Notes: a model not told the origin generated them from the sequence alone. A stretch of DNA of 32,000 nt from Chlamydiota bacterium (GCA_016196885.1 JACPWU010000003.1:30001-62000), one strand, 5' to 3'. Shown: positions 4,467 through 23,900, numbered from the stretch's first letter. A program made the numbers and translations.

Positions 4467-4645
4467 TTTCACCTGAAAATAGTCTTTAGTCATTCTTATA
4501 CAATGACTCATGATGACTTGTAGTCGCCCGATTTATCGGGCAATGCCCAATGCCACAATGTCATAGACCGCCCCATAAATGGGGCGACTACAAGGGTAAT
4601 TTTCATCCCCCTTTGTGCCGACCTCAGTCGGCATGAATGTTTCAT
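4467..4645. repeat. Left copy (179 bp) of a long inverted repeat; composite of several hairpins
   Basis: Base-by-base comparison shows 4467-4645 is the reverse complement of 7466-7634, with 2 mismatches (4555, 4611) and one 10-bp indel (4594-4603 is extra here). Internal hairpins: agtcatt/aatgact (4488-4508), gcccgat/atcgggc (4526-4541), cgcccca/tggggcg (about 4569-4586), tgccgac/gtcggca (4616-4633). There is a long-range stem gtagtcgcc/ggcgactac (4520-4528 / 4583-4591) and a tandem heptamer caatgcc x2 (4541-4554). Confidence 0.95.
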
Positions 4646-7030: not shown

Positions 7031-7434
7031 AGGTTCTTCTGGATAGCAATGTGATTGTTGCTGCCTTTGCGGCTCGTGGATTATGCCATGCCCTATTCGA
7101 GGTTTGTCTCGCAAAGCACCAGATCGTACTGGGCCCTTACATTGTAGATGAGGTCAAAAAGGCCCTTCGAGAGAAGATAAAACTTCCTTCAGGGAAAATT
7201 GAAGAAATAGTTTTCTTTCTTAAATCTCGCGCCTTTTTTGTTGAACCTGTCAGATTATCTGAAAATCCATGTCGTGATGCGAAAGATCTTCAAATTCTCG
7301 CATTGGCTGTGAGCGCAAAAGCGAGGTGCCTTATAACAGGTGATAAGGACTTGCTTTTTCTCAAGAGGTATCAATCCATTTTAATTTTGACCCCGCGTGA
7401 GTTCTGGGATTTTTCTAAAACTTATAAAGATTAA
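7027..7434 (+). CDS. PIN-domain toxin (the PIN family with a GDKDLL motif)
   Basis: MKVLLDSNVIVAAF ... DAKDLQILALAV ... LITGDKDLLFL is typical of the putative toxin PIN family. The gene is coupled to the RHH gene. Its last codons and stop (7432-7434) lie inside the 29-bp direct repeat. Confidence 0.75.
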   Translation: MKVLLDSNVIVAAFAARGLCHALFEVCLAKHQIVLGPYIVDEVKKALREKIKLPSGKIEEIVFFLKSRAFFVEPVRLSENPCRDAKDLQILALAVSAKARCLITGDKDLLFLKRYQSILILTPREFWDFSKTYKD

Positions 7435-7456
7435 GCAGCCGATCGTTCCTGGATGT
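7428..7456. repeat. Copy A of a perfect 29-bp direct repeat
   Basis: agattaagcagccgatcgttcctggatgt is identical at 7428-7456 and 7689-7717, checked base by base. Confidence 0.95.
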
Positions 7457-7465
7457 TCAATTGCT

Positions 7466-7634
7466 ATGAAACATTCATGCCGACTGAGGTCGGCACAAAA
7501 GGGGATGTTGTAGTCGCCCCATTTATGGGGCGGTCTATGACATTGGGGCATTGGGCATTGCCCGATAAATCGGGCGACTACAAGTCATCATGAGTCATTG
7601 TATAAGAATGACTAAAGACTATTTTCAGGTGAAA
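7466..7634. repeat. Right copy (169 bp) of the long inverted repeat
   Basis: Reverse complement of 4467-4645 (see the left copy). The identity breaks exactly at 7465/7466 and 7634/7635. Confidence 0.95.
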
Positions 7635-7688: not shown

Positions 7689-7717
7689 AGATTAAGCAGC
7701 CGATCGTTCCTGGATGT
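7689..7717. repeat. Copy B of the perfect 29-bp direct repeat
   Basis: Identical to 7428-7456. It contains the stop codon and the last 8 codons of the XRE antitoxin gene (minus strand). Confidence 0.95.
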
Positions 7718-8737: not shown

Positions 8738-10330
8738 ATGACCCACAAAGCCGTCTACGCCATTTCTAGGTTCTCTCTGGCTTTCATCTTCCTTTTCTGG
8801 CAATTCCCCCTCTATGCAACTCATGTGGGAAGTCATGATGGCAACTGCAGCGATTATCCGGGTGAGGATTGCTATCAGGCCATTCAAATCAGCGGAGAGG
8901 TAGAGGGCTACAGTGAATTTGATTATGCCTATCACAATTGTGGGCATAACGTCGTGAGCGGCTTTAGTTTGAACGGTAGTACGGGCAGTATCTTTACCTC
9001 GCCTAATCATATCAAGGTGACCTTTAACGATAACAATCTGAATCGCTCCATTCGTATTTATACCGACAATTATACGCAGGATGAAGTCTGTAGATATGGG
9101 AATTATGGCTCCTTAGAGGGTTCTGAGTGCGGGGGCGAGTTGATTCCTGAGACCGATTGCCCGTGTTATCCGGATGTGACGTGTGCGTCTTCTAGTTCTG
9201 TACGTATGAATGGAGGGCTTTTTAAATGGTTTAACCGAGGCGCGGAAGAAAGTGTGAATCTTTATCCCGATGGTGAACTTTCTACCGATGATGATGATAA
9301 AGATGGGGATCCCTATGATTCCGATGAATGGGATGAAAAATATACGAAAGGGGTGGACACCTTTATTAACAAAGGAGGGGAAGACAATGCCACCAATGGA
9401 TATCCTACAGGAAATTCCCCTTGCTACGATGAAGAGGATTTGGATTGTAATGGAAATGAAGATGATGGGACGAATGATTCTCGGGATGAGATCTACACGC
9501 CTGGAAGGGATATTTTTGTGGATGTGGGGGGTGAAGAGTGTGATGAGGATGCCAATGGGGATGGCTTAGAGGATGATGGAACAGAGGATGATATTGATGA
9601 AATTTATACCAAGGGCTTTGACACATTTATAGATGTGGGGGGTGAAGAGTCGGATGACGATGGAGATGGGATTGACGAGGTTTATACCTCGGGGACTGAC
9701 ATTTTTAATGTCTCAAACAGCACGACCAATAGCAGAACTGATTTGGGAGGTGAGGAGAGCGATGAGGATTTAGATGGAGATGGCCATGAGGATGATGGGA
9801 CAGATGACAACAAAGATGAGCTGTACACGGAAGGGCCCGCTGGGGATAAGGCCTTAAATAATAAATCTCCCGGAGCCTCTCTCCTTTGGGTCGTCCAGGA
9901 AGAAGATGAGGATGTAGACACAGATGGGGATGGAATTACCTTTGAGCCCTATACCTTTGTGGGAAACAGTACAATTGAGGGCTATGTGACGGACATTCAT
10001 CAGGAGAATGATACAGGGACGCTCAGTTATTGTGAAAAGTTCAATACCCAATACGCCAATGTTGCCTTTTCTATTTTTGAGCAGGGGGCCCTTTTGGCGG
10101 CCTTTCCGGAATGCGCACCTGCCAATCAAGACACAAATGGAAATGGAGAGCCCGGGGAATGCGGTGACGATGATGGGGCTGGAAGTGATCCTCCGGATGG
10201 TGTGAAGGAGTATGACTTTAGACAAGTTAAGGATGGAGAATTTGTGATCTTTCTGGGAGCCGATTTTCGCAGTGCTACTGCCGGGTATTATTGGGCCTAT
10301 TTGGTGATCGAGATTTATACGGAGGTGTGA
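8738..10330 (+). CDS. Secreted acidic repeat protein, paralogue 1 (530 aa) of a novel family; candidate fibre subunit
   Basis: The start is set at ATG 8738 (the track's TTG at 8648 adds 30 non-signal residues). Signal peptide: MTHKAVYAISRFSLAFIFLFWQFPLYA. Blocks shared with 10522-11583: DGNCSDYPGEDCYQAIQISGEVEGY, IKVTFNDNNLNRSIRIYTDNY, IEGYVTDIH, and FVIFLGADFRSATAGYYWAYLVIEIYTEV at the C-terminus. Confidence 0.8.
   Translation: MTHKAVYAISRFSLAFIFLFWQFPLYATHVGSHDGNCSDYPGEDCYQAIQISGEVEGYSEFDYAYHNCGHNVVSGFSLNGSTGSIFTSPNHIKVTFNDNNLNRSIRIYTDNYTQDEVCRYGNYGSLEGSECGGELIPETDCPCYPDVTCASSSSVRMNGGLFKWFNRGAEESVNLYPDGELSTDDDDKDGDPYDSDEWDEKYTKGVDTFINKGGEDNATNGYPTGNSPCYDEEDLDCNGNEDDGTNDSRDEIYTPGRDIFVDVGGEECDEDANGDGLEDDGTEDDIDEIYTKGFDTFIDVGGEESDDDGDGIDEVYTSGTDIFNVSNSTTNSRTDLGGEESDEDLDGDGHEDDGTDDNKDELYTEGPAGDKALNNKSPGASLLWVVQEEDEDVDTDGDGITFEPYTFVGNSTIEGYVTDIHQENDTGTLSYCEKFNTQYANVAFSIFEQGALLAAFPECAPANQDTNGNGEPGECGDDDGAGSDPPDGVKEYDFRQVKDGEFVIFLGADFRSATAGYYWAYLVIEIYTEV
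9332..9850 (+). repeat. Five in-frame tandem acidic repeats, DE(I/V/L/K)YT.G.D.F..(V/K)GGE(E/D).D.D..GDG.EDDGT.D
   Basis: Units start at 9332, 9485, 9596, 9674 and 9815, all in the CDS frame. Unit lengths vary (153, 111, 78 and 141 nt). The D-x-D-x-D-G strings resemble calcium-binding loops of the thrombospondin type 3 kind. Confidence 0.8.
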
Positions 10331-10338
10331 GGAAGTGG

Positions 10339-10354
10339 CTAAGTGCTTAAGTCT
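10339..10354. repeat. Tandem 8-mer ctaagtgc ttaagtct just after the paralogue 1 stop
   Basis: The same motif (ttaagtgc x2) occurs after the paralogue 2 gene at 11654-11669. The shared 13-mer taagtgcttaagt is at 10340-10352 and 11655-11667. Confidence 0.7.
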
Positions 10355-10521
10355 TTAAGATGTAAAGCATTAGGGATAAAAAAAGAAGTGTTTTTTACTT
10401 TTCTGTTTCGAAAGTTGTCTTAATGGGTAGGAAGGTTGCTTTAATCGAGGAAATGCAGCTACTTGTGTAGCGCGTGGAGGTTAAAGGACTTTCTAATATG
10501 TGTAAAAAGGAGGAGAAAGAG

Positions 10522-11583
10522 ATGAAAAGGTTCTCAAAGATGAAAGGCGTGACCTACGCGCTGTTGGTGTTGTGCAGTTTGTGGGGAATGCCTTCTTATG
10601 CAAGTCATGGCCATGATGGAAATACAGATAATTGTAGTGATTTCCCGGGCGAAGATTGCTATGAAGGAATTCAGATGAGTGGTGAACTGGAGGGTTATAC
10701 GGTGTTTAATGTGGTATTGCATGATGCTTTCCATACTGAAGTGCCAGGTAGTATTTCTGTTGCTCCAGTGGATTTGAATGGCGATGGAACAGCCAGTGGA
10801 TCTGAATTGGTGACCACGGGTGACAAACATATTATCGTTAGTTTTGATGATAACAATGTCAAACGTGATATCCAGATTTACATGGATAATTATGAGGGTG
10901 ATGCGGATCTAAATGGTGTTCCTGATTATCAGCAGTACGAGGAAGGTTCTATTGTAACCGGGGCCAGCCCGTCTACTTTGATGAAAAGTGGCTTGATCGG
11001 TGCAGTTGATCCCGATTATGTGGTTCCTGCCTTCTGGCATATTGCGGAGGGTGATGGAACGCCTGTGGCTGTTACAGGTAACTCTGGAGTTGAAGGCTAT
11101 GTCACAGATATCCATGCGGAAGATGTGGATCCATTAAGCTCAAATTACAATAAGTACAGCTTCCTGGATTCCTACGCCAATATGGCTTTCGCAATTCTGG
11201 GGCAGAATGCCGCTCTTGCAGCCAGCTCTGGTGTGTGTGCTACGACAGATACAAACGGGGATGGAAACATTGACTGTAATACAGGTTATGACACAAACGG
11301 TGATGGAGTTGTTGATACGTACCGTTCTGATTCTGCTGGATGTTCAACAGAGGATACCAACAAGGATGGAGTTGCTGGAGAATGCGGTGTGCTTGACTCG
11401 ACTGATCTGAACCAGGATGGTTCGACAACGGATCTTCTCTATGACTTTAAGAACATCAGCAGTGGTTCTTTCCAGGTTACAGTGGGTGCGGACTATCGTG
11501 GTTTCCCTGCTCAGAACTACGAAGGTACTCTCAACGTTGAGATTTATACTGAGTTGACAGGCGATACCAATCATCACTTCTAA
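10522..11583 (+). CDS. Secreted protein, paralogue 2 (353 aa) of the same novel family; candidate fibre subunit
   Basis: AAGGAGGAG at 10507-10515 lies 6 nt before the ATG at 10522 (the track start of 10474 is a GTG). Signal peptide: MKRFSKMKGVTYALLVLCSLWGMPSYA. Shared blocks: DNCSDFPGEDCYEGIQMSGELEGY, IIVSFDDNNVKRDIQIYMDNY, VEGYVTDIH, and FQVTVGADYRGFPAQNYEGTLNVEIYTEL near the C-terminus. Confidence 0.85.
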   Translation: MKRFSKMKGVTYALLVLCSLWGMPSYASHGHDGNTDNCSDFPGEDCYEGIQMSGELEGYTVFNVVLHDAFHTEVPGSISVAPVDLNGDGTASGSELVTTGDKHIIVSFDDNNVKRDIQIYMDNYEGDADLNGVPDYQQYEEGSIVTGASPSTLMKSGLIGAVDPDYVVPAFWHIAEGDGTPVAVTGNSGVEGYVTDIHAEDVDPLSSNYNKYSFLDSYANMAFAILGQNAALAASSGVCATTDTNGDGNIDCNTGYDTNGDGVVDTYRSDSAGCSTEDTNKDGVAGECGVLDSTDLNQDGSTTDLLYDFKNISSGSFQVTVGADYRGFPAQNYEGTLNVEIYTELTGDTNHHF

Positions 11584-11653
11584 GAGGGTGTAAAACTTCT
11601 TCTTTCTCTGTCCCCCGAAGATGGTATGTCGCGGGGGCGGGGAGGGAGGGGTT

Positions 11654-11669
11654 TTAAGTGCTTAAGTGC
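11654..11669. repeat. Tandem 8-mer ttaagtgc x2 downstream of paralogue 2
   Basis: Read directly. It is the partner of 10339-10354. Confidence 0.7.
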
Positions 11670-11706
11670 GTGGGTGTCTAGGTTATTATCATAAGCAAGT
11701 AGCGCT

Positions 11707-11802
11707 TGTCATCTCGAGGAGCAGTTTTTTGCGACGAGAGATCTTTGTCTTAGAATTAGAGCAAGATTTCTCCCCTTCGTTGCACTCAGGGTCGAAATGA
11801 CA
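11707..11802. repeat. MITE-like element (~96 bp) with imperfect terminal inverted repeats tgtcatctcgag / gtcgaaatgaca
   Basis: Termini match at 10 of 12 positions in inverted orientation. It lies in an intergenic spacer and contains no ORF. Confidence 0.5.
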
Positions 11803-11849
11803 ATGGCTTTAGGATATTTAAAGATTCAAAAAAGGAAAGAGGGTTTTTT

Positions 11850-12689
11850 ATGAAGTTTAAAATTTTGACCATTTTAATATTAAGTTTGCTTTTTCCTGTG
11901 AGTAGCGTTTTTGCTGTGGGTTTAAGGGTGAGCCCGGGAAGAGCCACAGTGGTTTTAAAGCCAGGTGAGCAAAAAGAAGGGGTTTATCATATTAAAAATA
12001 CATCGAATACGACTCAAAAGATTTTGGTTCAGGCTGAGGATTGGGTTCAATTTCGACAAGGCAAGCCTCGTGTTCGAGCTGAGGGATGGCTTAATTTTGA
12101 GAAGACAGAATTTGTTTTAGATGTGGGAGAGGAAACAGAGCTAAAGTACAAGGTTCTTTTGGATAAGGATTTTAGAGGGGAAAAAGTGGCCCAGGTTTTT
12201 TTTACCCCTGTTCCGACGGGGGATTCCAGTCAGGGTGTTTCGATTCGTGTTCGTTCGGGTGTTTTGTTGATGGCCATTGCGAAGGAGGACATTCAGGTTA
12301 AGGCTGAGATTGGGATGGTTTCTTGGACCCAACAGAAGGATGGCGTTTCTGCTTTGCAAATTCAGATCAAGGATGCAGGCAATGTCCATATTAAATTAGG
12401 CGGTGAAGTAAAGGTTTTGAATGAAAAGGGGGATGTGATTTGGAAAGGGGTTTTGGACCCGGCCCAGACGCCGGGCCTTTTTGCCGGGGAAGAGAGGCCC
12501 TATTCGCTTCCCTTTAATATGAAAGTTTTGAAAGAGTCGGAGAAATATCTTTGTGTGATTGAATTGGATTATGGCGTGAATGATGCGAAGGGACTTTCTG
12601 TTTCGAAGAAGTTGGATTTGAGATTGGTGGCGAATGAGGTTGTTTTTGCCGAGAGGGTGGGAATACCAGTCGTGAGTCGTGAGTCGTGA
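11850..12689 (+). CDS. Secreted two-beta-sandwich protein, PapD-like periplasmic chaperone-like (alternatively a DUF916/DUF3324-like surface protein)
   Basis: Signal peptide: MKFKILTILILSLLFPVSSVFA. The first domain, LRVSPGRATVVLKPGEQKEGVYHIKNTSNTTQKILVQAEDW ... VAQVFFTPVP ... SIRVRSGVLLMAI, follows the alternating-strand pattern of pilus chaperone domain 1. The second domain, ALQIQIKDAGNVHIKLGGEVKVL ... YLCVIELDYG, also follows the alternating-strand pattern. The coding call is strong; the function call is weak. Confidence 0.6.
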   Translation: MKFKILTILILSLLFPVSSVFAVGLRVSPGRATVVLKPGEQKEGVYHIKNTSNTTQKILVQAEDWVQFRQGKPRVRAEGWLNFEKTEFVLDVGEETELKYKVLLDKDFRGEKVAQVFFTPVPTGDSSQGVSIRVRSGVLLMAIAKEDIQVKAEIGMVSWTQQKDGVSALQIQIKDAGNVHIKLGGEVKVLNEKGDVIWKGVLDPAQTPGLFAGEERPYSLPFNMKVLKESEKYLCVIELDYGVNDAKGLSVSKKLDLRLVANEVVFAERVGIPVVSRES

Positions 12690-12690
12690 G
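12669..12690. repeat. Heptamer array (gtcgtga) x3 that supplies the last codons and stop of the 11850-12689 gene
   Basis: gtcgtgagtcgtgagtcgtgag encodes VVSRES-stop. The same heptamer array occurs in frame in the giant ORF at 19021. Confidence 0.9.
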
Positions 12691-12700
12691 TGCTTTGCTT

Positions 12701-12736
12701 GTCATTGCGAGGAAGCTGTAGGCAGGCGAAGCAATC
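12701..12736. repeat. Short palindromic unit gtcattgcgagg ... cgaagcaatc
   Basis: The attgc/gcaat dyad with a gtcat terminus has the same style as the other gtcat-type units in this window. Confidence 0.5.
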
Positions 12737-12770
12737 TTGAGTTTTGGAGAGCATTCTGGAAGTTTGTTAT

Positions 12771-12848
12771 GTAGTCGCCCCATTTATGGGGCTGCCCGAT
12801 GAATCGGGCGACTACAAAAGAGGGCTGCCCGATGAATCGGGCGACTAC
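12771..12848. repeat. Two tandem hairpin units of the gtagtcgcc / gcccgat..atcgggc / ggcgactac family, as found in the long inverted repeats
   Basis: gtagtcgccccatttatggggctgcccgatgaatcgggcgactac, followed by gggctgcccgatgaatcgggcgactac. The building blocks are shared with 4520-4591 and 7510-7581. Confidence 0.8.
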
Positions 12849-12928
12849 AAAAAAAGCATGATGGGGAGAACTTTCATTGCATATGATGGTCTCGAATACG
12901 GGTTCGCAATGGCAGAGTGGTGGGATAG

Positions 12929-15900
12929 GTGATGAGTATGGATTTATCCTCTGAAACAAATGCTAAAAATTTTAAGGGTGTTTATGCCCTTTTGCCAGGG
13001 TTCTTTTTTTTTCTTTTTCTCTCCTTTTCTTCCCATTCTCTCTTTGCCTCTTTTGTAGATTCCGATTCTGACCGCATGGACGATGCATGGGAAGGTGCGC
13101 ATGGCCTTAATCCAAGCGATGCATCCGATGGAACAGTAGATTCAGATGGGGATGGGATCATGAATGATGAAGAGTATTTTACCAACCACGATCCCCATGC
13201 CCCCGATCCAACTCTGAGTGACTCAGAGTTGGTGGATCTTGCCGCGAGAAAGGCCTTTCTTTATTTCTGGGAGCAGGCGAAGGTTCCAAGCACGGGTGGA
13301 GTGACAGAGCCTATTTTGATTCCAGATCACTCTGATTTTAATGGGGGGAGTCCCGCTACCTATTACAGCATTGCGGCGATTGGATTTGGTTTAGCTGCAA
13401 TGGTTGTGGCCGATGACCGTGACTGGATAGATCATGTTTCTGCGTATAACCGAATTGATGCGACTTTAAAATTTTTTAGGAGTTTACAGACCAGCACAGA
13501 TGATCAGAAGGTCAAGCATGGTTATTTCTATCACTCTTATGATGTGAATGGAATTCGAACGTCTGGGAGTGAACTTTCAACGATGGATCATGCCATTTTT
13601 GTGGCGGGGGCTCTCTTAGCGGGCCAATATTATCGTGGGACTGAAATAAAGGATTTGGCTGACGAAATTTATTCTTCAACCGAGTGGAATTGGGCCTGGG
13701 ATGGGTCTTTTTTATATAGGGGCTGGGTCGAGGATGGCGGCCCTGTGGAAGGCGGAAGTTGGGTGGGAGGTAGCGCGAAATGGGACAGTTATGCCCAAGA
13801 GATTATTCTTCTTAACTTGGCCATTGGAAACCAAGGGGCGTATAACATTCCGCAAGTCGCTTGGTCTAACATTGCCCGACCTTTGGAACAATATGGTTCT
13901 TTTCCTTCTTATATTCATGTGGGGTCTCTTTATGCCCACCAGTATTCCCATCTTTTTTTGGATTTGAAGAGTCGGCCCGATGCCTTGGGCTATGATTATT
14001 TTGAAAATTCAAGAGTGGCCACAGAGGTCAATCGGCAGTTTGCGATAGATTTGAATTTAAAGGATCCTTTGAAATATGAAACTTATGGGGAAAATGTGTG
14101 GGGGCTTTCTGCAGCGAATGCCTCGAAGGGGTACCAATCTTTGGAGCCCATTCTTTCGACAGAGGATGAGGCTGTGATTGAGGCGTACAATGATTCTGGA
14201 ACGGTTGCGCCTTTTGCCCCCCTGGGTTCTTTACCTTTTACTCCAGAAGAGTCTCTCGGGGCATTGAGAGAAATGTATGAGAATCGAAATTCTTTCTTGA
14301 GTGCTCAGACAATTTGGGGACGTCACGGTTTTTTGAATGCATTTAATACCGGCACAGCTTCAGGAGGACAGAAACCCTATTTTAGCACGCAGGTGATAGG
14401 AATTGATTTGGGCCCGATTGTAGGAATGGCGGAAGATTACAGAACGGGTCTTTTGTGGAAATATTTTTTTAGATCGGCGATTGCCGAGTCGGGCATGGCC
14501 AACATGGGGTTCAGTACCGAGCCGGTCGAACCCCATGTTTTAAATTTTGACAGCGGGTCGGATCCCAACGATTTTGGGGGAGATTCGGGGGGGATTGGGG
14601 GGGGCGATGTTTCTTATGTGACGGATACGCCCGATGGATCGGAATTCTCTGCCCAGGTGAGTGGTTCAAATATCGGAGATGGGGCTTTCATGGGGCTTGC
14701 GGGGCATTCCATTCATCCCTGGGATGGATTTTCAATTTGGGTGAGGGCTTTGTCCGAGGGGGGGTCTTTAGAAGTCGGACTCAAAGATACAGATGGAAAT
14801 CAGTGGACGGTGTCGCTTGCAAGTTATCATCCTCAAGGGGCACTCACACAATCTTGGACGCAAGTGAAAATTCCTTTGGAGCCTTTTGTGGAGGCGGGGG
14901 TACGACTCACCCGTTTGGATGAAATCTTTTTTGTGTTTACTTCTAGTGGCGGCGTTATCCAAGTGGACGATGTTGGATTTTTGGAAGATGTATTTTCCCC
15001 GGATTCCCCACAAGATTTTAAGGCTCAATTTGTGACTCCCGATCGAGTCGAACTTTCTTGGCAAGAAAGTCCTTCTAAGGATGTGGTGGGTTATAAAATT
15101 TATCGCAAAAAGAGTTCTGGAAATTTTGAGGAATTAACGGCCAATGAGAATGGCTATGTTTATTTAGGAACTTCTTATACAGATACTGCGATTGATCCCT
15201 CTCAACAATACACCTATCGCGTGATCGCCCTTGACAATTCTCAAGATTCAGATGATTCGGATGATGGCTTGGAAAGTGAGCCAGCTGAAGATCAAGCCTA
15301 TACCTCAGATAAAGATGGGGATGGTTTGGATGATCAGGAGGAGGCAACTTTGGGGACTGATCCGAATAATTCCGACAGCGATGGAGATGGCGTGAGTGAT
15401 GGAGAGGAAGTGAATCAGAATGGGACGAATCCAAAAGACGCGGATACAGATGACGATGGTTTCACCGATGGCCAGGAGGCCTCGACAAATTCTGACCCTA
15501 AAGATCCAGAGAGCCAGCCAACCCAGATCACGATTACAGCGGATAACCGTTATGTCTTGTATGTGAATGGGGTCAAGGTGGGTGAGGATGACAATTGGAG
15601 TACGGTGGAAAAGTATGTTGTAGATTTGAAGCCGGGAGGAAATGTAGCGATTGAGGCGATAGACTCAGGGGGAATCGCAGGTTTGGCAGTGAATATTTCC
15701 AATGGGACTCAAGTGCAGGTTTCGAATTTTATTTGGCAATGTTCGCTTCAAGCTTCTTCAGGATGGGAGACCGAGGGCTTTGATCATTCGAGCTGGGTGG
15801 GGGCCACAGAACATTTTCAGGTGGGAGGAGGACCGTGGGGAAGGATGGACAGTTTCAATTCTAAGACCCGGTGGATTTGGTCATCGGATGCCTTAAAGGA

Positions 15901-17803
15901 TGATCGTGTTTGTTTCTGGACAACGTATGATCCAACTTTAAATGGTTTGATTAAGGTGACGGCCGATAATGCTTTTCGTTTGTATCTGAATGGGACTGAA
16001 ATGACAGAAGGAGATGATTGGTCAAAAGTTAAGTTTGTACAGGCTGTTCTGACGCCGGGAGATATTCTTGGGATTGACGCTTGGGATCAAGGAGGGGTGG
16101 CATCTCTGATTGCTGAAGTAGATATCATGGACAGCAATGGGGAAAAACAGTTTTTCACGACCGATACAACCTGGACGCTTTCAACTTCTGAAATGAGTGG
16201 TTGGGAGACACAGGATTTCGATGATTCTAGCTGGTCCGGTGCGACGGTGATCGCACAAAAGGGGGATCCTCCTTGGGGAAATTCAGGGACCTTATCGTCT
16301 ATTGATTCTTCGGCAAAATGGATTTGGGGCCAGGATTCTCAAGGAATCAATGAGGTATGGATTCGAAAGGAGATTCCCAACGCCATCTTCACTTTGACCG
16401 TAGATAATTCTTTTGAGCTTTACCAAAACGGGGTTTATTTGCTTTCCAATTCTGATTGGAGTCATCCCCAAAGTGTAGGGGTTTATCTTCAAGAAGGGGA
16501 TGTGCTTGCGGTCAAAGGAGTGGATGCTGGGGGGATCGCTGGTTTTTTGGGATCGGTGGCATTTCTGGATGGTTCAAGTTCCATTCTCACCAATTCCAGT
16601 TGGAAGGCATCTTTGGGACCCTACAATGATCCTTCGTGGACCCAGGCGAGTTTCGACGATTCTTCTTGGGGCTATTCCATTTCTATGGGAGCCAATGGAA
16701 TTGCCCCTTGGGGGACCGTGGAACACATTGACGGGAGTGCACAGTGGATTTGGGGGAACGATCCTGTGAATCAAGACCAAGCCTATTTTAGATTTGTGGT
16801 GGGTGCTACGAATACTTCAGACGTTACGACGCTTAAGATCACGGCGGACAATGCCTTTGAGTTCTATCACAATGGGGTTCTGGTTGCGACGGGAAGTGAT
16901 TGGACAAAGGCCGTTCTTTTGTCTCTCAAATTGAGTGCAGGAGATACCTTGGCCTTCAAATGTCTTGATTATGGCGGGAAGGCAGGTTTTTTGGTGGAGG
17001 GGGTACAAGGAGGAAAGCGATTTATTTCCAACAGTGATGACTGGAAGGTTTCGACTCAGGAAATAAACGGTTGGAATCAAAAGGGCTATGATGCCTCTGA
17101 TTGGACGCCTGCCTCAAATTATGGCTATTATGGGGCGAGTCCCTGGTTTAAAAATGTGGTTAATTTTACGGCCGAGGACGCCAATTGGCTATGGTCTAGT
17201 CACAATGTGACCAACGGGCCTATTGATCCTGTGATTTATATGACAAGGCTTGTGATGGGGTTTGAGGCCAATGTTTTTAATACAGACGATGGAAGTTCTG
17301 CAGATGGGATCAATTTTAGAGCGCTGTCTTTAGGGATGGTCAATTCGGGCCAAGCCGTGGAAATTAAATTTGCAGGACATTATCACTATGACGGCCTTCC
17401 TCATCAGGTCATTAATCTTCATACGGAAAATGAAGATGGGCGAGATGGCTTGGTCGGGGTGAGTGACTCACAAGCGCATATTCCTGTTTTTTGGGTTGTG
17501 ACTCCGCAAAGGGTGAGTGATGCCGAAGACACGGATCAAGACGGAGTCGCAAACAATTATGACTTCAGTGGGGATCCCTCTGAAGAGGCCTATTTGATAG
17601 ATGTCACAAATCCTGATCTCTACAGCTATGGGAATGCCGCCTATAAGCTAGACGGATTCCATGGGAATTTAGCGAATTTTGGGGGATCGTCTCGGACTGC
17701 AGATGAAGGTAAAATTTATCTCTATTTCGGAGCTGATTTTTCATATGCGAAGGCTCAAAAGTATAAAACCACCCTCTACGTGGACATGGTGACCCTGTCT
17801 TAA
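12929..17803 (+). CDS. 1624-aa secreted multidomain protein; candidate two-part adhesin
   Basis: Domain order: TSP3-like acidic repeats, (alpha/alpha)6 glycoside-hydrolase-like domain, beta-sandwich CBM-like domain, FN3, TSP3 repeats, four jelly-roll repeats, then a C-terminal module shared with the two small paralogues. The ORF is in the track (GTG 12929 / ATG 12932). Hydrophobic N-terminus: YALLPGFFFFLFLSFSSHSLFASF. Domains were read from the translation (see the sub-features). The antisense ORFs are short. Confidence 0.9.
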   Translation: MMSMDLSSETNAKNFKGVYALLPGFFFFLFLSFSSHSLFASFVDSDSDRMDDAWEGAHGLNPSDASDGTVDSDGDGIMNDEEYFTNHDPHAPDPTLSDSELVDLAARKAFLYFWEQAKVPSTGGVTEPILIPDHSDFNGGSPATYYSIAAIGFGLAAMVVADDRDWIDHVSAYNRIDATLKFFRSLQTSTDDQKVKHGYFYHSYDVNGIRTSGSELSTMDHAIFVAGALLAGQYYRGTEIKDLADEIYSSTEWNWAWDGSFLYRGWVEDGGPVEGGSWVGGSAKWDSYAQEIILLNLAIGNQGAYNIPQVAWSNIARPLEQYGSFPSYIHVGSLYAHQYSHLFLDLKSRPDALGYDYFENSRVATEVNRQFAIDLNLKDPLKYETYGENVWGLSAANASKGYQSLEPILSTEDEAVIEAYNDSGTVAPFAPLGSLPFTPEESLGALREMYENRNSFLSAQTIWGRHGFLNAFNTGTASGGQKPYFSTQVIGIDLGPIVGMAEDYRTGLLWKYFFRSAIAESGMANMGFSTEPVEPHVLNFDSGSDPNDFGGDSGGIGGGDVSYVTDTPDGSEFSAQVSGSNIGDGAFMGLAGHSIHPWDGFSIWVRALSEGGSLEVGLKDTDGNQWTVSLASYHPQGALTQSWTQVKIPLEPFVEAGVRLTRLDEIFFVFTSSGGVIQVDDVGFLEDVFSPDSPQDFKAQFVTPDRVELSWQESPSKDVVGYKIYRKKSSGNFEELTANENGYVYLGTSYTDTAIDPSQQYTYRVIALDNSQDSDDSDDGLESEPAEDQAYTSDKDGDGLDDQEEATLGTDPNNSDSDGDGVSDGEEVNQNGTNPKDADTDDDGFTDGQEASTNSDPKDPESQPTQITITADNRYVLYVNGVKVGEDDNWSTVEKYVVDLKPGGNVAIEAIDSGGIAGLAVNISNGTQVQVSNFIWQCSLQASSGWETEGFDHSSWVGATEHFQVGGGPWGRMDSFNSKTRWIWSSDALKDDRVCFWTTYDPTLNGLIKVTADNAFRLYLNGTEMTEGDDWSKVKFVQAVLTPGDILGIDAWDQGGVASLIAEVDIMDSNGEKQFFTTDTTWTLSTSEMSGWETQDFDDSSWSGATVIAQKGDPPWGNSGTLSSIDSSAKWIWGQDSQGINEVWIRKEIPNAIFTLTVDNSFELYQNGVYLLSNSDWSHPQSVGVYLQEGDVLAVKGVDAGGIAGFLGSVAFLDGSSSILTNSSWKASLGPYNDPSWTQASFDDSSWGYSISMGANGIAPWGTVEHIDGSAQWIWGNDPVNQDQAYFRFVVGATNTSDVTTLKITADNAFEFYHNGVLVATGSDWTKAVLLSLKLSAGDTLAFKCLDYGGKAGFLVEGVQGGKRFISNSDDWKVSTQEINGWNQKGYDASDWTPASNYGYYGASPWFKNVVNFTAEDANWLWSSHNVTNGPIDPVIYMTRLVMGFEANVFNTDDGSSADGINFRALSLGMVNSGQAVEIKFAGHYHYDGLPHQVINLHTENEDGRDGLVGVSDSQAHIPVFWVVTPQRVSDAEDTDQDGVANNYDFSGDPSEEAYLIDVTNPDLYSYGNAAYKLDGFHGNLANFGGSSRTADEGKIYLYFGADFSYAKAQKYKTTLYVDMVTLS
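13229..14515 (+). other. (alpha/alpha)6-barrel glycoside-hydrolase-like domain of the putative-glucoamylase / beta-1,2-glucanase (GH144-like) type
   Basis: AARKAFLYFWEQA, YYSIAAIGFGLAAMVVA, HGYFYHSYDVNG, LSTMDHAIFVAGALLAGQYY, YAHQYSHLFLDL, WGRHGFLNAFN and QVIGIDLGPIVGMAEDYRTGLLWKYF. The last block resembles the iDqGp...miEN.r.G..W signature I associate with this family. Assigned from memory; not searched. Confidence 0.5.
14995..15241 (+). other. Fibronectin type III domain
   Basis: SPDSPQDFKAQFVTPDRVELSWQESPSKDVVGYKIYRKK ... TSYTDTAIDPSQQYTYRVIALDNS shows the classic FN3 W, Y.(I/V).R and Y.Y.V pattern. Confidence 0.75.
15526..17262 (+). repeat. Four tandem ~140-148-aa domain repeats (galactose-binding-like / jelly-roll type by motif)
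   Basis: Units start near 15526 (ITITADNRYVLYVNG), 15947 (LIKVTADNAFRLYLNG), 16384 (IFTLTVDNSFELYQNG) and 16827 (TLKITADNAFEFYHNG). Each continues with DW ... D.GG(I/V)AG ... W ... GW(E/N).(Q/E).(F/Y)D.S.W..A ... PWG ... W(I/L)W. Confidence 0.85.
17262..17800 (+). other. C-terminal module homologous to the two small secreted paralogues
   Basis: GQAVEIKFAGHYHY aligns with IKVTFNDNN / IIVSFDDNN. IPVFWVVTP aligns with VPAFWHIAE. EAYLIDVTNPDLYSYGNAAYKLDGF aligns with VEGYVTDIH...SYANMAFAILGQ. KIYLYFGADFSYAKAQKYKTTLYVDMVTLS aligns with FQVTVGADYRGFPAQNYEGTLNVEIYTEL. Aligned by eye. Confidence 0.55.
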
Positions 17804-17949
17804 GATATCTCTTTCTATCATAACCAAATCTCTTCCAATAGGTTAAATTCATTAAAAATCCTTCAAATAAATCATTTCTTTTTTGACCTTTTTCACCTCT
17901 GAAATGTCCTTATTTGTGAGTACTTTAAATCAGGTACTTATAGGCACTT

Positions 17950-20900
17950 ATGATAAATTCTTCACCTAAAAGGACCAGAGGGTTCCACCTCGGGTTGAAG
18001 TGTGTTTCCACACTGACCCTGATGGCCTTCTTTTTTACCTCCGTATGTGAAACTTCCCTTTTTGCGCAAGAAGGGTTGAAAGTTGGAAGTTGGAAGTTGG
18101 AAGGAAAGGAAAATAAATCCCCTCAGGTTTTTTCTTCCAACCTCAAACCTCCCACTTCCAACTTGCTTTCAAGCGTCTCTATTCCCTCCGTCAGAGGAGA
18201 TGTCCTTCAGCGTTTTCAAGGTAAAGACGATCGTTTGGTGATTCAACTTCAAGACGTGCATTGCCATTTCGAGGCGCAGTCTAATTCGGCCAAGATTATC
18301 AAAGGGTTAATGGATGAACATGGATCCCATGGGCTTCACATGGTGGCAGTCGAAGCAGCAGGCGAGCCTGTGGACACTTCTCTTTTGACTTCTTTCCCGG
18401 ATCCCAAACTCCGAAAAATGTTTGCCGATTATCTCATGAAAATCGGAAAAATTTCTGGAGCTGAATATCTTTCAATCATTCAAGACAAGCCCCTTCCCCT
18501 CGAGGGAATCGAGAACATGTGGAATTATTTTCGACATGTTGTGCAGTTTAATCAGGGTCAGGTGGTGAAGGAAAAGGCGGAACCGATTTTAAATAAAATT
18601 CAAAAGGCGATTTTAGAATTGCGTAAAAAAGTTTATTCCGCAGAGATGAGGAAGTTTCTGAATCAGTCTGAGGCTTATGAAAAGGGAGATATGGAGTTGG
18701 GGGAGTATATAAAACAGTTAAAAGTTGAAAGTTCGAAGTTGAAAGAAAAAGATAAAAACTCCTTGTCATCTTCCAACATCCAACTTTCAACATCCAACAT
18801 TCCTTCCTCCTCCAGCTATCCCAACATTTCTCTCATGCTCCAGATGAAGAAACTAGAGGACAAAATAGATCTCAAGCAAGTTGAAAAAGAAAGAGTCAAA
18901 CTTTTAGAAGATTTAAGCCACAAACTCGTCAAAGAAGAGATGGTGGAGCTGATGACGAAGAGTTTGTACTACAGACTCGAGAAGATGGATGCGTGGGAAT
19001 ATTATGAATATTTAAAGACTGTCGTGAGTCGTGAGTCGTTAGGGGTGAGGGGTCAGAATTCAACGTTAGAGAAAACTTATCCTAACCTTATGAAATACAT
19101 CGAAATGACAGAAATATTTCACGAGATCAAGAGTGATGAGCTTTTGAAGGAGTGTGAAAAGATATCGGAGGAAGTACAAGATAAGTTGTTAAAGACCAAA
19201 GAAGAAAAGGCGCTCAGGCAAATCGAAAAAGACTTTATTATTTTGAGAAACTTTTTTGAATTGGAGATGAAGAAGAGCGAGTTTCAGTATTATGTGGAGA
19301 ATAAGGAGAGGGTTTCGGCTGAGAATATAGTGGAAGGCTTAGAGAAGTTGGAGGGTCAAGGGTCAAGGGTCAAGGGTCAGGATAACTCCCCTCGGTCCCC
19401 TCTTAATTTAAGAGGGGAGGAAAAACAAAAACAAGAGAGAGAGCAAGTAGAGAGTTCCTCCCCTATTTTAAAAGCGGGGGAAAAGCAAAGGCAGGTAACG
19501 TTCTCTCCCCTTAGTTTAAGGGGAGATGGAGGGGTTACAAATGACGACATCACCTTCCTTGACTCTCATCTCAAATCCCTCGAACAATTCTATCGCTACT
19601 CAGACAATCGTGAAGAGGCGATGGTCCAGAACACGCTCCGGAAAATGAAAGAGAACAAGAGTCCGATTGCGATTTTGTATGCAGGAGGATTTCACACTGA
19701 TGGACTGAGCAAGCGTTTGGAGCAAGAAGGAGTGTCTTACGTCGTAGTTGCTCCGCGCATCACTCAATTCAAACTTAAGACCCCGTATTTATCCATTATC
19801 AAGAATGAGCCTTCGAAATTAGAGAAAATGTTGATGGATTTGAATAAAAAAGAAGGGTCCAACCTGGCTGCGATTTTGATTAGCATGAAGCCGGAGGAAT
19901 TAGAAAAAATTATTTCAGATTTTCAGCTTGCTGACACTGACCTCGTCACTGTTTGGATTCGCGATACGATTCGTTTGCTTCGTACTGATAGAACCATGGC
20001 TCTTTTGATTTTAAAAACCTTGATGCTAAAAGATCAGTTAAAAAATTTAAGTGCCTTGGCTCATGTGGGTGACAAGATTCAGGATTTGGAGAAAAGCTGG
20101 TTAAATGAATTCAAGAGGCTTTCGGGAGAAAATAATTTTAATTCAGAAGAAGTTGAAGTCATTGAATTTAAATTGGATCGAGATGTTGTGGTGAATGGCA
20201 ATACAATCACCCTTCAAGTTTTGATCAGTGGCAAACAATCTTTGACCGTGACTCTAAATGTTCATGAAGGCATCGAACAAATGATGAATCGTATCGAAGA
20301 TGCTTTTAAGCCTGTGGCTCTAATACCTCCGGCTTCAGGAGAAAAGGGGGAAGTAAAAAAGTCAGGAGTGCCGCCATGGGTAAAAGCAGTATTTTCTTTT
20401 TTTCTTGTTTTTTTAACTAAATCGCTTTCTGCGGCTCCGAGTGTTTTTGTCAAAGCCCCTCTTTTTGATCCAGGAATGGATTTGGTTGCCTTGCACAGTC
20501 ATTTTGCGATTTGGGGTTCGATGTGGACGTATGCAGCGGTCATTGCGATCCCGCTCGGATTGGTTTTTATGTTTTGGGCCTTGGGCAAGATTAAGTCTCG
20601 ATGGGTGGAGGCAAGAATAAGAGCGATTGTGGAAGAGGTGGAGCAACCGCAACTTCTTTCAGAAACGATTTCTTCAGGAACAGTTTCTTCCCGAGTTCAT
20701 CTTTTTGATTTTGAATTCGCTTCAGATATTCCTCAATCTGAAAGAGAGCGTGCCTCAGCATTTTTTCAGGATGTTCTAGGTGATGAGCTTCAAATGTGGG
20801 AAAGAAATTTGCTCCGTCAATATCCAGTTTTAGATTCAAGGGAATTGAGATTTCATGTTCGATTTGTAAATGAAACTCCATCTGAAAAATGGGCTCTGAA

Positions 20901-23900
20901 AATGGAAGAGGGAGGTCTGGTTGTTAATTTAGGGGCCTTTCTTTCTGCTAAGGGCGCAAAAGCAAATTTAAGGTCTTATTTTGAAAGACTGAAGGTGGAG
21001 CGTGAAAGAGATTTGTCTGGGCGCAGAGATTTGATTGCACTCCCTCAGCAAGTTTTGAAGGGAGACGGTAGACTTTTTGTTGATTATTCGAGCGGGATTC
21101 GAAAGGTGTTGGTCAGCCAAGAAAACGCAGGTTCTTTATGGAGATTGGCAGGGCAGATCAAGGGACATCCGCAAAGAGTCGTACCTTTGTTGGATCAATT
21201 GGAATCTCAGGCGGTGACAGCTGTTCTTTATGATAGAGAGGGTCAGCCCTTTTCGCTTTTGATCTATGTGCCTGGTTTTACAGATCAGGTCTACGACTGT
21301 CCCTTGATTCGGGACCGGACAAGATATGATGAACTTCTTTCGGTTTATCGTTCGCTCTCTTCTATTCCTTCAGTGGAAATGGTCAGGAGGAATGATGTTT
21401 CTGTAGAAGATGTGAAAGATCTTTTAGGGGACAGAGATCATGTTGAGTTTTTTGTGAGATGGGCTTCAAAGGCGGCAGAGAAGAAGCGTCCTTCTTTCTG
21501 GAATGTTTTGCGTGCTTTGGCATTGTGGATGACAAAGGGAGAGCGAGAACGATTTGATGAGATGCTGGAAAAATACTTTGGCACTTCCTGGTTGGGTCGG
21601 TTGATGGCAATGGGTTTTTGTCTCTTCATAGGGACTGCGTTCAGCGCCATCATCATTGGTTGTCTTGGTTCTCCGACGAAAGCTGATGCAGCTTATTTTG
21701 ATGTTTCGTCTCATGGGGGAACTCTTTCTGCTGAGGTTCAAAAAGCACCTTCTCAGAAAGGGGGAGACGTAGAAAGTGAGGGAGACATTCAGGCGGATAT
21801 CGAAAGATTAGAAAAGGGAATACAAGCTTTAAACGAGGAAAATGCTTCTGCGACCTCAGGCTCTGGCGCAAAAGAAGAGAAAGCACCTCCCGTAGAAGAA
21901 GTAAAAAAGACTGAAGGGGGAAAGAAGAAGGCCGAACCTGAATGGACGAAGAAAAAGAGAGAGGAGTATGAAAGAGATTTGGCAAAAGAGAGAGAGGCTT
22001 TTAAGAAAAAGGCAGGTGCACCTCATTCAGAAAATCTTACGCTTCAGCCTACAGAAAATCTTACTGACTTAAAAGGAAAAATACAGGCGATAGAAGAACA
22101 AAAAAGACTTGAAGAGTTAACCATTGATACCCTCGAATATTTAAGTGCCCAGCTTCGAGTGGAAACCCTGAATCAACAAGCCGCAAGTCTTGAGCAGGAA
22201 ATCGTGGCCTTAAAAGATCAGTTGAATCAGGAAGAAAAACTTTCTCCGACTGATAAAGAGAGTCTTCAGAAAAGACTTCATGGAAAAGAAGAAAAGTTTC
22301 AGACATGTCAACAGTCTCTTCAGGAATTAAACGCTGAGATAAATGCCATGAGGCATGATTCAAAAATCGAAGAGGGTTTTAAAGAAAAATCAGATGAAGA
22401 ATTGGAGAAAGCCATGAAAGGGCATCTTAAGGAATATTTTATTCTTCATGTCAGATTACAACGTTATCAAGCAATGATGCAAGATCTCTTGGGTACAAAA
22501 AAGAGAGATTCCGGTGTTCAAGCGCAATCCAGTTCCTCTGCCAAAGTTCAATTAATTCCTTCTTCTCAAGATTTAAAACCTGCTCAGGGTTCTTCCCCCC
22601 AGAGTTTGCGTGAGTCTATTAAATATTTTATTGAGAGAGGGGTGAAACATTTTGATGAGATGAGTCAGGATGATGATGCGCTGGCCCAGTATCTTTATGA
22701 TCAATATCGTTTGAAGGGCAGGGGTGAGTTAAAAGGAGAAGTTAGGATTGGGTGGCAGAATTATTATTCTTATGGGACTGCTGGATCTGATTCCTATGAA
22801 GCTCAATCGGAAGAGGATGTGGTGGCGACTTTGTTTTTCGACAAGACGATTGATAATGCAAAAAAAGAGCAAATGAAATCAGCCTTTTGGCGTTTAGAAG
22901 CTCAACATCGTATGCAGCTTCAGGGACAATATGACGCCTGGGCTGGGATTTATCAATTGACGGGAGAAGTGCTGAAGGCAAAAGCCAATATTGAAGTTCA
23001 GAAAAAATTTGAGACAGAGGCTAAATCTTTGGTGGATCAAATGCAGGAGCGTTTCTTGAAACCCCGCGAGATGGATGAGGCTCAAGGGGGGGACCCCAGG
23101 ATTTTTCAAACGCGATACTTGAATCGTTGGCATGAAGCTCAGGCCAGCCGTATTCAGGCTGAAGAAGCTTATGAGACAGCTTGCTTAAGACTAAAAGGGC
23201 TTTCCGGAATGGCTGTTGATGATGAGATTCAAATACCCGGCTCTTTGGAGGAGTGGAGTGTATTTGATATTGAATCTCTTTTTAAAGAGATTTCTGAGGA
23301 ATTAAAAAATGAGGGAGTGAATGCAAAGTTTATGGATCAAAGCGTTCAAATTAGCACTGCTTTGGTGAATGAGGCTGCCTTTTGGAAAAAGGAATTGGAC
23401 GAGAATGACGTTTCGCTTGAGATGAAATTGGGAGCAGGCTTACAGGGGCGATGGAACATGGATACTTCGGGTGGTTTTGAATGGCCGTTTAATCCCTTTG
23501 TTTCTGGAGAATTTGAGTTAAAAATTTCTCTCCTCGATTGTGTTGCAAAGGCTCAAGGAAGGGTGGGTGAAGTCATTAATCAAATGGCGGTTCTGAGGAT
23601 GGATGAGGCAAAAAAAGGTTTGTACTTTAAGTATTTAAATGCCCAGGCTGAGCTGGAGGCAGCCCAGAGAATTTTGAAGGTTTTAGAGAAGGTTTTAGAG
23701 GTTGAGTTGAAAGAAATGAGTGTGGAGCCTCCGGTGCTGCAAAGTGATTTGGAGCTTGAGTGGGACCGGATTGGCGTGAGTCGGAATTTGGAGATCGCTC
23801 GCAATGAGGCTTTGGCAAGAATTGCCAGTGCCCGACTCAAAATGACGGGGTACCGCGCTCAGATACCTCCTGAAGAGTTGAAAAAAGTAGACGCGCTCGT

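Follow-up and report, generated by a model that had tools for sequence, protein, structure and literature searches.

Four co-directional genes in a 32,000-nucleotide stretch of DNA from a Chlamydiota bacterium (GCA_016196885.1 JACPWU010000003.1:30001-62000, the window in what follows) encode two small paralogous proteins, a 279-amino acid (aa) protein of two immunoglobulin (Ig)-like domains, and a 1624-aa protein that carries the module of the small proteins at its C-terminus. As the conservation of the gene set shows, they are a real, conserved secreted system of Omnitrophota-type bacteria. The best reading of the cluster is that of a variant of the WxL/Csc plan in diderm bacteria, with a module that is previously undescribed. 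In its full form, to which about an even chance is given, this reading holds that the four genes specify a secreted multiprotein surface complex on the Gram-positive WxL/Csc plan, formed via strand complementation, in a diderm Omnitrophota-type bacterium of the Planctomycetes-Verrucomicrobia-Chlamydiae (PVC) group. It is favoured because the 279-aa protein is a homologue of the WxLIP proteins, because the architecture and gene order match, because the gene set is conserved, and because of the cargo protein and genomic context. Among known plans, it is the Gram-positive WxL/Csc cluster that comes closest, and not a chaperone-usher operon. The genes, as open reading frame (ORF) translations, are:

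8738-10330, plus strand: ORF of the 530-aa small protein
10522-11583, plus strand: ORF of the 353-aa small protein (a GTG codon at 10474 would give 369 aa)
11850-12689, plus strand: ORF of the 279-aa protein
12929-17803, plus strand: ORF of the 1624-aa protein

All four ORFs lie on the plus strand, in the order small, small, WxLIP-like and large, and their coordinates agree with the NCBI gene calls for the same contig. As read from the sequence, each protein begins with a basic n-region, which is followed by a hydrophobic stretch and then by a cleavage motif of small residues.

The 279-aa protein is secreted, and has two Ig-like beta-sandwich domains of the PapD/ASH/MSP fold class. The protein encoded in the window has no Pfam match above threshold, and no match to PapD_N or PapD_C, while its orthologue in a sister metagenome-assembled genome (MAG) has a faint Pfam match to WxLIP_PGBD (DUF916). 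An exhaustive HMMER search with a two-sequence profile retrieved 1204 representatives at E<=1e-3 (counted at 50% identity), most of them 250-290 aa in length. Among 90 members of this family, the commonest Pfam matches were to WxLIP_PGBD (seven members) and WxLIP_HBD (six members), with ASH, Cep192 and PapD_N, which belong to the same fold class, matching fewer; PapD_N was matched by just two of the 90, and weakly (3e-4). The 90-sequence family profile matched the PDB chains 9i25_C and 9i1y_A ('EfmWxLIP1') with an E-value of 5e-8 over both domains, and matched no chaperone-usher chaperone in the PDB even at E<=10. The entry 9i25 comprises WxLIP1 together with a 'WxL domain surface protein'. 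In addition, hhalign comparison with eight annotated Gram-positive 'DUF916 and DUF3324' proteins gave a probability of 98.2% and an E-value of 4e-14 over 233 columns, again covering both domains. Because of the PDB profile match and the hhalign result, the 279-aa protein is identified as a remote homologue of the WxLIPs (DUF916/PGBD plus DUF3324/HBD), and as anchor-less because it has no transmembrane helix. The original prediction, which had been made from the sequence alone, took this protein for a PapD-like chaperone. The two-domain, Ig-like architecture of the PapD/ASH/MSP class stands, but its detectable relatives are WxLIPs and not the chaperones of the PDB; its likeness to PapD goes no further than the fold class.

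The 530-aa and 353-aa proteins are paralogous, with BLASTP E-values of 2e-25 for an N-terminal block and 5e-16 for a C-terminal block, and all of the motifs that had been quoted for the pair are found in the translations. Both proteins are secreted and acidic, and both are matched by a module-family hidden Markov model (HMM). The mature form of the 353-aa protein is approximately the module and its Asp-rich loops only. In the case of the 530-aa protein, which is very acidic (pI ~4, 23% Asp plus Glu), the module is split by an insert of ~270 aa with about five tandem, D/E/G-rich repeats of ~35 aa each that end in DE(I/V/L)YT (aa ~190-390, window 9300-9900). The insert is positioned at a loop that holds a single P.YTG motif in other family members; the repeat array looks like a lineage-specific expansion, and is possibly calcium-binding.

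The claim that the 1624-aa protein ends in the same module is upheld by profile-profile comparison with the small proteins (hhalign, 94% probability, E 9.5e-8, 101 columns) and by the six collinear blocks of a MAFFT alignment; pairwise BLASTP of its last ~185 aa against the small proteins is marginal (8e-4). In other loci, too, the module-family HMM places the module at the C-terminal end of large proteins, with E-values from 1e-17 to 1e-32. The family was said at the outset to be unrecognised, and it has no match in Pfam or NCBIfam, for either the small proteins or the module, even at E<=10. The matches to fimbrial subunit, SCPU and DUF4402 families that had been raised for it are likewise missing from these two collections, and the module profile matches no PDB sequence.

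An AlphaFold2 model of the C-terminal module of the 1624-aa protein, built from a 21-row alignment, reached a pLDDT of ~90 for construct residues 58-240 and a pTM of 0.72, and predicts a compact, beta-rich fold of about nine strands that is confident as a monomer. A model of the mature 353-aa protein from a 5-row alignment had a pLDDT of 33.5 and was discarded. When the module model was compared with the PDB by Foldseek, the ranking was led by donor-strand-complemented pilins and filaments (CfaB, CfaE/6k73, CS17, CupE, CsuA/B, FimA, FimI, PapA, Caf1, PsaA, CanA and the Sulfolobus 0406 thread), with CfaB (4y2l, E 1e-3, prob 0.99) at the top; a GH123 beta-sandwich domain and the carbohydrate-binding module (CBM) CBM3 are also in the list. 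The scores are marginal, as no match lies below E 1e-3, the query template-modelling scores are 0.28-0.33 and the root-mean-square deviations are 7-10 Å. The predicted fold of the module resembles donor-strand-complemented pilins weakly, such that the pilin likeness suspected earlier is reflected in the identity of the top matches but not in the strength of their scores.

This ranking bears on an alternative explanation, that of a donor-strand-exchange fibre, whereby the small proteins would polymerise head-to-tail via an N-terminal strand, the large enzyme or lectin would be placed at the tip by way of its subunit-like C-terminal domain, the 279-aa protein would be a periplasmic chaperone, and export would follow a non-usher route, for instance through a type II secretion system (T2SS) secretin. 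In the small proteins, a conserved alternating strand, (I/V)x(I/V)xAxGx(V/L)xG, is found directly after the signal peptide, and this strand is missing from the large proteins of two loci, L009 and L012; in the 1624-aa protein of the window, the segment that aligns to it belongs to the preceding lectin repeat. However, the large proteins of L022, L024 and L028 do have the strand, and the distinction between tip and rod is therefore weakened. A WxLIP homologue without a membrane anchor, as for a soluble chaperone, would suit a fibre, as would the one to four small paralogues per locus and the strand insertion predicted for WxLIP:WxL pairs, which is parallel, as in chaperone G1 donation (PMC10599100). 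Set against these are the marginal Foldseek scores, a module of about nine strands that folds confidently as a monomer, a chaperone-like protein that matches none of the chaperone-usher chaperones in the PDB, and a set of 19 loci with neither an usher nor any other recurrent outer-membrane barrel. A fibre of this kind is considered unlikely. Distinctly doubtful is its boldest form, in which the module would be a new donor-strand-complemented, pilin-like subunit class, assembled by a soluble WxLIP/PapD-like chaperone in the absence of an usher and exported by the T2SS, to yield fibres on Omnitrophota nanobacteria that are tipped with a beta-1,2-glucanase-like enzyme. If true, such a system would represent an evolutionary bridge between the WxL complexes of Gram-positive bacteria and chaperone-usher pili, and would be part of a prey- or host-attack apparatus beside the giant genes. 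Overall, the earlier interpretation of the cluster as a fibre system is partly supported.

Pfam, NCBIfam and PDB sequence matches, together with the positions of repeats, give the following domain order for the 1624-aa protein: TSP3-type calcium-binding motifs, a GH144-like domain, an fn3 domain, three TSP3 repeats, four lectin/CBM67-PA14-like repeats, and the C-terminal module. The main segments are:

13190-14521, plus strand: GH144/SGL-like (alpha/alpha)6 'Glycoamylase' domain, aa 88-531 (PF10091, E 5.4e-44)
15527-17251, plus strand: four tandem ~145-aa lectin/CBM-like repeats (ITADN.F.LY.NG ... W.W), from motif positions
17252-17803, plus strand: C-terminal shared module, aa ~1442-1624, from hhalign against the small proteins, AlphaFold2 and Foldseek

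In the PDB, the first of these segments matches XCC2207 (8xul, 1e-43), 4gl3 (4e-33) and an endo-beta-1,2-glucanase (5gzh, 3.7e-23), and these matches identify a GH144 / SGL-clan, beta-1,2-glucanase-like domain. The repeats match PA14 and Bac_rhamnosid_N, with the alpha-L-rhamnosidase family NF041573 matching in four stretches, and they align with the PDB lectin chains 6t0q and 6kbj at E ~3e-13. Judged by its domains, the 1624-aa protein is less a classical adhesin than a putative enzyme that bears lectin domains. Thus, with regard to the two-domain tip adhesin that had been envisaged, the arrangement holds in that the module of the small proteins recurs at the C-terminus of a large one, but the large protein is a GH144-like enzyme with lectin repeats and is not obviously of the FimH/PapG type.

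The gene set is found repeatedly outside the window. The sister MAG (L001) has the same five genes, giant gene included, and on a short contig (L007), the next closest WxLIP-like gene precedes the N-terminal part of a large-protein homologue. In L009, assigned to Omnitrophota by cluster-member name, three small module proteins, a WxLIP-like gene and a 1869-aa PF10091 protein with the C-terminal module are encoded; the Omnitrophota MAG L012 encodes one small module protein, a WxLIP-like gene and a 1418-aa PF10091 protein that ends in the module. The cluster is further seen in metagenome loci L021-L034, L046 and L049. Word-indexed searches, whether started from either of the 353-aa and 279-aa proteins or from the alignment of the module, reached the two sister MAGs only, the last of these searches being swamped by Asp-rich words, and the sole homologue of the 353-aa protein obtained in this way was the sister-MAG orthologue. 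A scan of a genome collection yielded a single locus because the pattern was narrow, and a metagenome scan provided 31 additional loci. With iterated local HMMs, 33 module ORFs were identified in 19 loci, and a module ORF lies directly beside the WxLIP-like gene in each of the 17 informative loci of the close WxLIP-like clade. The conserved loci correspond to ~14 independent lineages, among Omnitrophota-type MAGs and metagenome contigs, and each has between one and four small paralogues. Co-occurrence of the four genes in related genomes, which had been put forward as a check on the original prediction, is seen in every informative close-clade locus.

PF10091 is present in the large module proteins of at least eight loci (the window, L001, L007, L009, L012, L022, L024/26/27 and L028), and every large protein ends in the module. 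Besides the module and WxLIP-like genes, only two sets of neighbours recur. T2SS genes are downstream in L012, L022 and L026, with a secretin gene upstream in L009, and genes of a sugar ATP-binding cassette (ABC) transporter are downstream in L032-34; a CBM30/11 protein is adjacent in L012. ORF and Pfam analysis confirmed that the window has no usher-sized gene, and the 19 loci likewise contain no usher and no recurrent barrel-sized family. The giant TolC-like ORF, which had been proposed as a possible outer-membrane component, lies beside the cluster only in the two sister MAGs, and is therefore not a conserved partner; it was rejected in this role as it is not adjacent in L009, L012, L022, L026, L032 or L033.

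The near-constant link between the module and the PF10091 domain suggests a second alternative, namely that the module is a new CBM or a surface-anchoring beta-sandwich. The small proteins would then be glycan-binding partners of the GH144-like enzyme, similar to surface glycan-binding proteins (SGBPs), and the 279-aa protein an Ig-like binding protein, with no strand complementation or defined complex. Consistent with such an arrangement are the neighbouring genes for CBM30/CBM11 and for a sugar ABC transporter, the presence of CBM3 and of a GH123 beta-sandwich domain among the Foldseek matches, and a 576-aa protein in L032 with an N-terminal module and a CHU_C tail. It leaves unexplained, however, the strict adjacency of the WxLIP homologue (17/17 informative close-clade loci), and it is at odds with the position of the module as the last domain in every large protein, with top structural matches that are pilins and not CBMs, and with the mode of action of the only relatives of the 279-aa protein to have been characterised, which bind a partner domain. 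This second alternative is regarded as quite unlikely.

For the WxL/Csc-type surface complex, the model is provided by Firmicutes, where WxL clusters encode a small WxL protein, a large WxL protein and a WxLIP. The mature small protein is the domain alone and is acidic, whereas the large protein has N-terminal binding domains and a C-terminal WxL domain (PMC9772566, PMC10599100, PMC1534035). In AlphaFold2 predictions, a WxLIP hairpin turns into a strand and fills a gap in the WxL beta-sandwich, an insertion that is parallel, like the G1-strand donation of chaperones (PMC10599100). By analogy, the four proteins of the window would be exported by the Sec pathway, as their N-termini suggest, and the 279-aa WxLIP homologue would bind the ~185-aa module, both in the small proteins and in the enzyme, through insertion or complementation of a beta-strand, as expected from homology to the EfmWxLIP1:WxL pair. 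Such binding may stabilise the partners and link them into a hetero-oligomer, in which the small, acidic module-only proteins would be scaffold or anchor units and the 1624-aa protein the cargo, with its GH144-like domain and four lectin-like repeats held at the surface via the C-terminal module. Passage across the outer membrane is probably through the T2SS, given the genomic context, and released sugars may be imported, as some loci have a sugar ABC transporter next to the cluster. The binding mode, localisation, substrate and export route of the complex are all inferred.

Several observations weigh against this reading. A C-terminal transmembrane helix is present in eight of eight Gram-positive WxLIPs and in no member of the 279-aa family, which also lacks part of the conserved N-terminal NQIDK..YFDLK motif of WxLIPs. 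For the module itself, no module protein matches the WxL family of Pfam (PF13731) at E<=10, there is just one W-x-(V/I) motif as compared with the dual W-x-L motifs of WxL domains, and the solved WxL chain 9i25_A is not among the 50 best Foldseek matches of the module model. Comparison by hhalign was done twice, with a 12-sequence and then a 33-sequence module profile; in the latter case, the probability of a match to a 14-sequence WxL profile was 0.6% (E 0.1), and the possibility that the module is a WxL domain was rejected at the sequence level on the outcome of both profiles. The sole likeness between the two is in the last strand, which reads AQ.Y.TtL.vEiyT in the module and A..Y.tTLtW.L in WxL. 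Finally, distant members of the 279-aa family occur in L035, L038 and L040 without any module gene; some members thus stand alone, and a module partner does not always accompany the family.

In these three loci, the genes that flank the distant family members are presumably housekeeping genes, with N-termini that, judged by eye, resemble ruvX (YqgF) and mltG (YceG); in L040, the family gene also adjoins two small proteins that resemble outer-membrane beta-barrels. A different arrangement is seen in L036 (7170-13573), where a distant, 486-aa family member follows four small secreted proteins that end in ...WTVTYTLTAQ or ...WRITYTITSI, a last strand reminiscent of WxL, and is itself followed by a 725-aa SdrD_B/CarboxypepD_reg protein. 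In this locus, the same plan may be realised with yet another partner domain. The 576-aa protein of L032 (11950-13680), with its type IX secretion-type C-terminal domain (CHU_C), indicates that the module family is also found outside the T2SS/Omnitrophota context.

In the window, the cluster is located between two giant genes:

2-4435: giant gene upstream, encoding the last 1477 aa of a 6016-aa protein that has matches to inteins and P-loop NTPases
17944-32000: giant ORF downstream, 9014 aa in full, which opens here and runs off the window, with a single OEP/TolC-like match

Giant genes are typical of Omnitrophota, yet the MAG is labelled 'Chlamydiae bacterium' at NCBI. Upstream of the cluster, a ~179-nucleotide (nt) inverted repeat pair (4467-4645 and 7466-7634, 93% identical) surrounds a 2.8-kb island of toxin-antitoxin-type genes (PIN, HEPN plus nucleotidyltransferase, and PIN_3), and a 29-nt exact direct repeat (7428-7456 and 7689-7717) is found by the island, an arrangement that could be a mobile or invertible cassette. 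In the sister MAG, the place of the island, immediately upstream of the cluster, is taken by a gene (L001 7358-8089) for a 243-aa protein of the prepilin type (N_methyl) that has a Gly/Ser-rich linker; this prepilin-type gene is not in the window. The gene for the 1624-aa protein is unbroken in the window, and collinear with the 1618-aa orthologue of the sister MAG. In the public record JACOUD010000054.1, the gene is split into 566-aa and 996-aa products because 229 nt (window 14586-14814) are missing there, and a search for flanking repeats found none that explain this difference between assemblies. The outcome of a promoter and terminator scan was the same as for shuffled sequence.

Clusters of WxL and WxLIP genes have been regarded as a feature of Firmicutes, the source of >91% of known WxL sequences (PMC9772566). 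Here, the WxLIPs gain a large, unannotated sister family of ~1200 representatives, which in Omnitrophota-type bacteria is tied to a different partner domain, which looks pilin-like and is likewise unannotated, and to a GH144-like enzyme. The usher-less complementation of strands by an accessory protein may, as this suggests, be widespread in surface complexes of both monoderm and diderm bacteria. The cluster also offers a concrete surface system that can be put to the test in a phylum whose nanobacteria are mostly uncultured and possibly predatory; a setting between giant genes, as here, has already been suspected of cell-wall attack (bioRxiv 10.1101/2023.11.21.568195). The giant-gene studies of Omnitrophota that were searched make no mention of the cluster, of GH144, glucoamylase, WxL or DUF916.

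Three groups of known systems can be compared with the cluster. With cellulosome-type display and the SGBPs of Bacteroidota polysaccharide utilization loci, it shares a glycoside hydrolase whose terminal module is common to non-catalytic partners, and a location near genes for carbohydrate binding and sugar import; homology to dockerin, cohesin, SusC or SusD was not found here, and the analogy is functional only. Chaperone-usher pili, such as CFA/I (CfaA-B-C-E), the archaic Csu and CupE pili and type 1 (Fim) pili, likewise have an accessory protein with two Ig domains in the PapD/ASH fold class, and small subunits along with a two-part protein that has a subunit-like C-terminal domain, and it is their pilins that are the best PDB matches of the module model, at marginal scores. 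In contrast to these pili, there is no usher (~800 aa, PF00577) in the window or the 19 loci, the accessory protein has no sequence match to their chaperones (PF00345 plus PF02753), and the subunit of ~185-250 aa, with about nine predicted strands, is larger than a pilin.

The WxL/Csc clusters of Enterococcus, Listeria and Lactiplantibacillus differ from the cluster in that their shared domain has the dual W-x-L motifs and is matched by PF13731, neither of which applies to the module, nor is there hhalign support for a relationship; in that their WxLIP has a transmembrane anchor; and in that they include an LPXTG partner, whereas the window has no LPXTG gene. The host here is of the Omnitrophota type and presumed diderm, with T2SS genes and not a sortase nearby, and the cargo in nearly every locus is a GH144-like enzyme. 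In other respects, the two correspond closely. Both have a homologous central two-domain protein, one to several small domain-only proteins that are acidic (as computed and compared for both), and one large protein in which binding or enzymatic domains precede the shared domain at the end. The gene order is also common to both, as eight annotated Gram-positive loci read LPXTG, small WxL, WxLIP, large WxL, and the genes here run small, WxLIP-like, large. Carbohydrates are a further shared theme, proposed for the Gram-positive clusters (Siezen 2006, PMC1534035) and evident here in the adjacent sugar transporters of L017 and L032-34.

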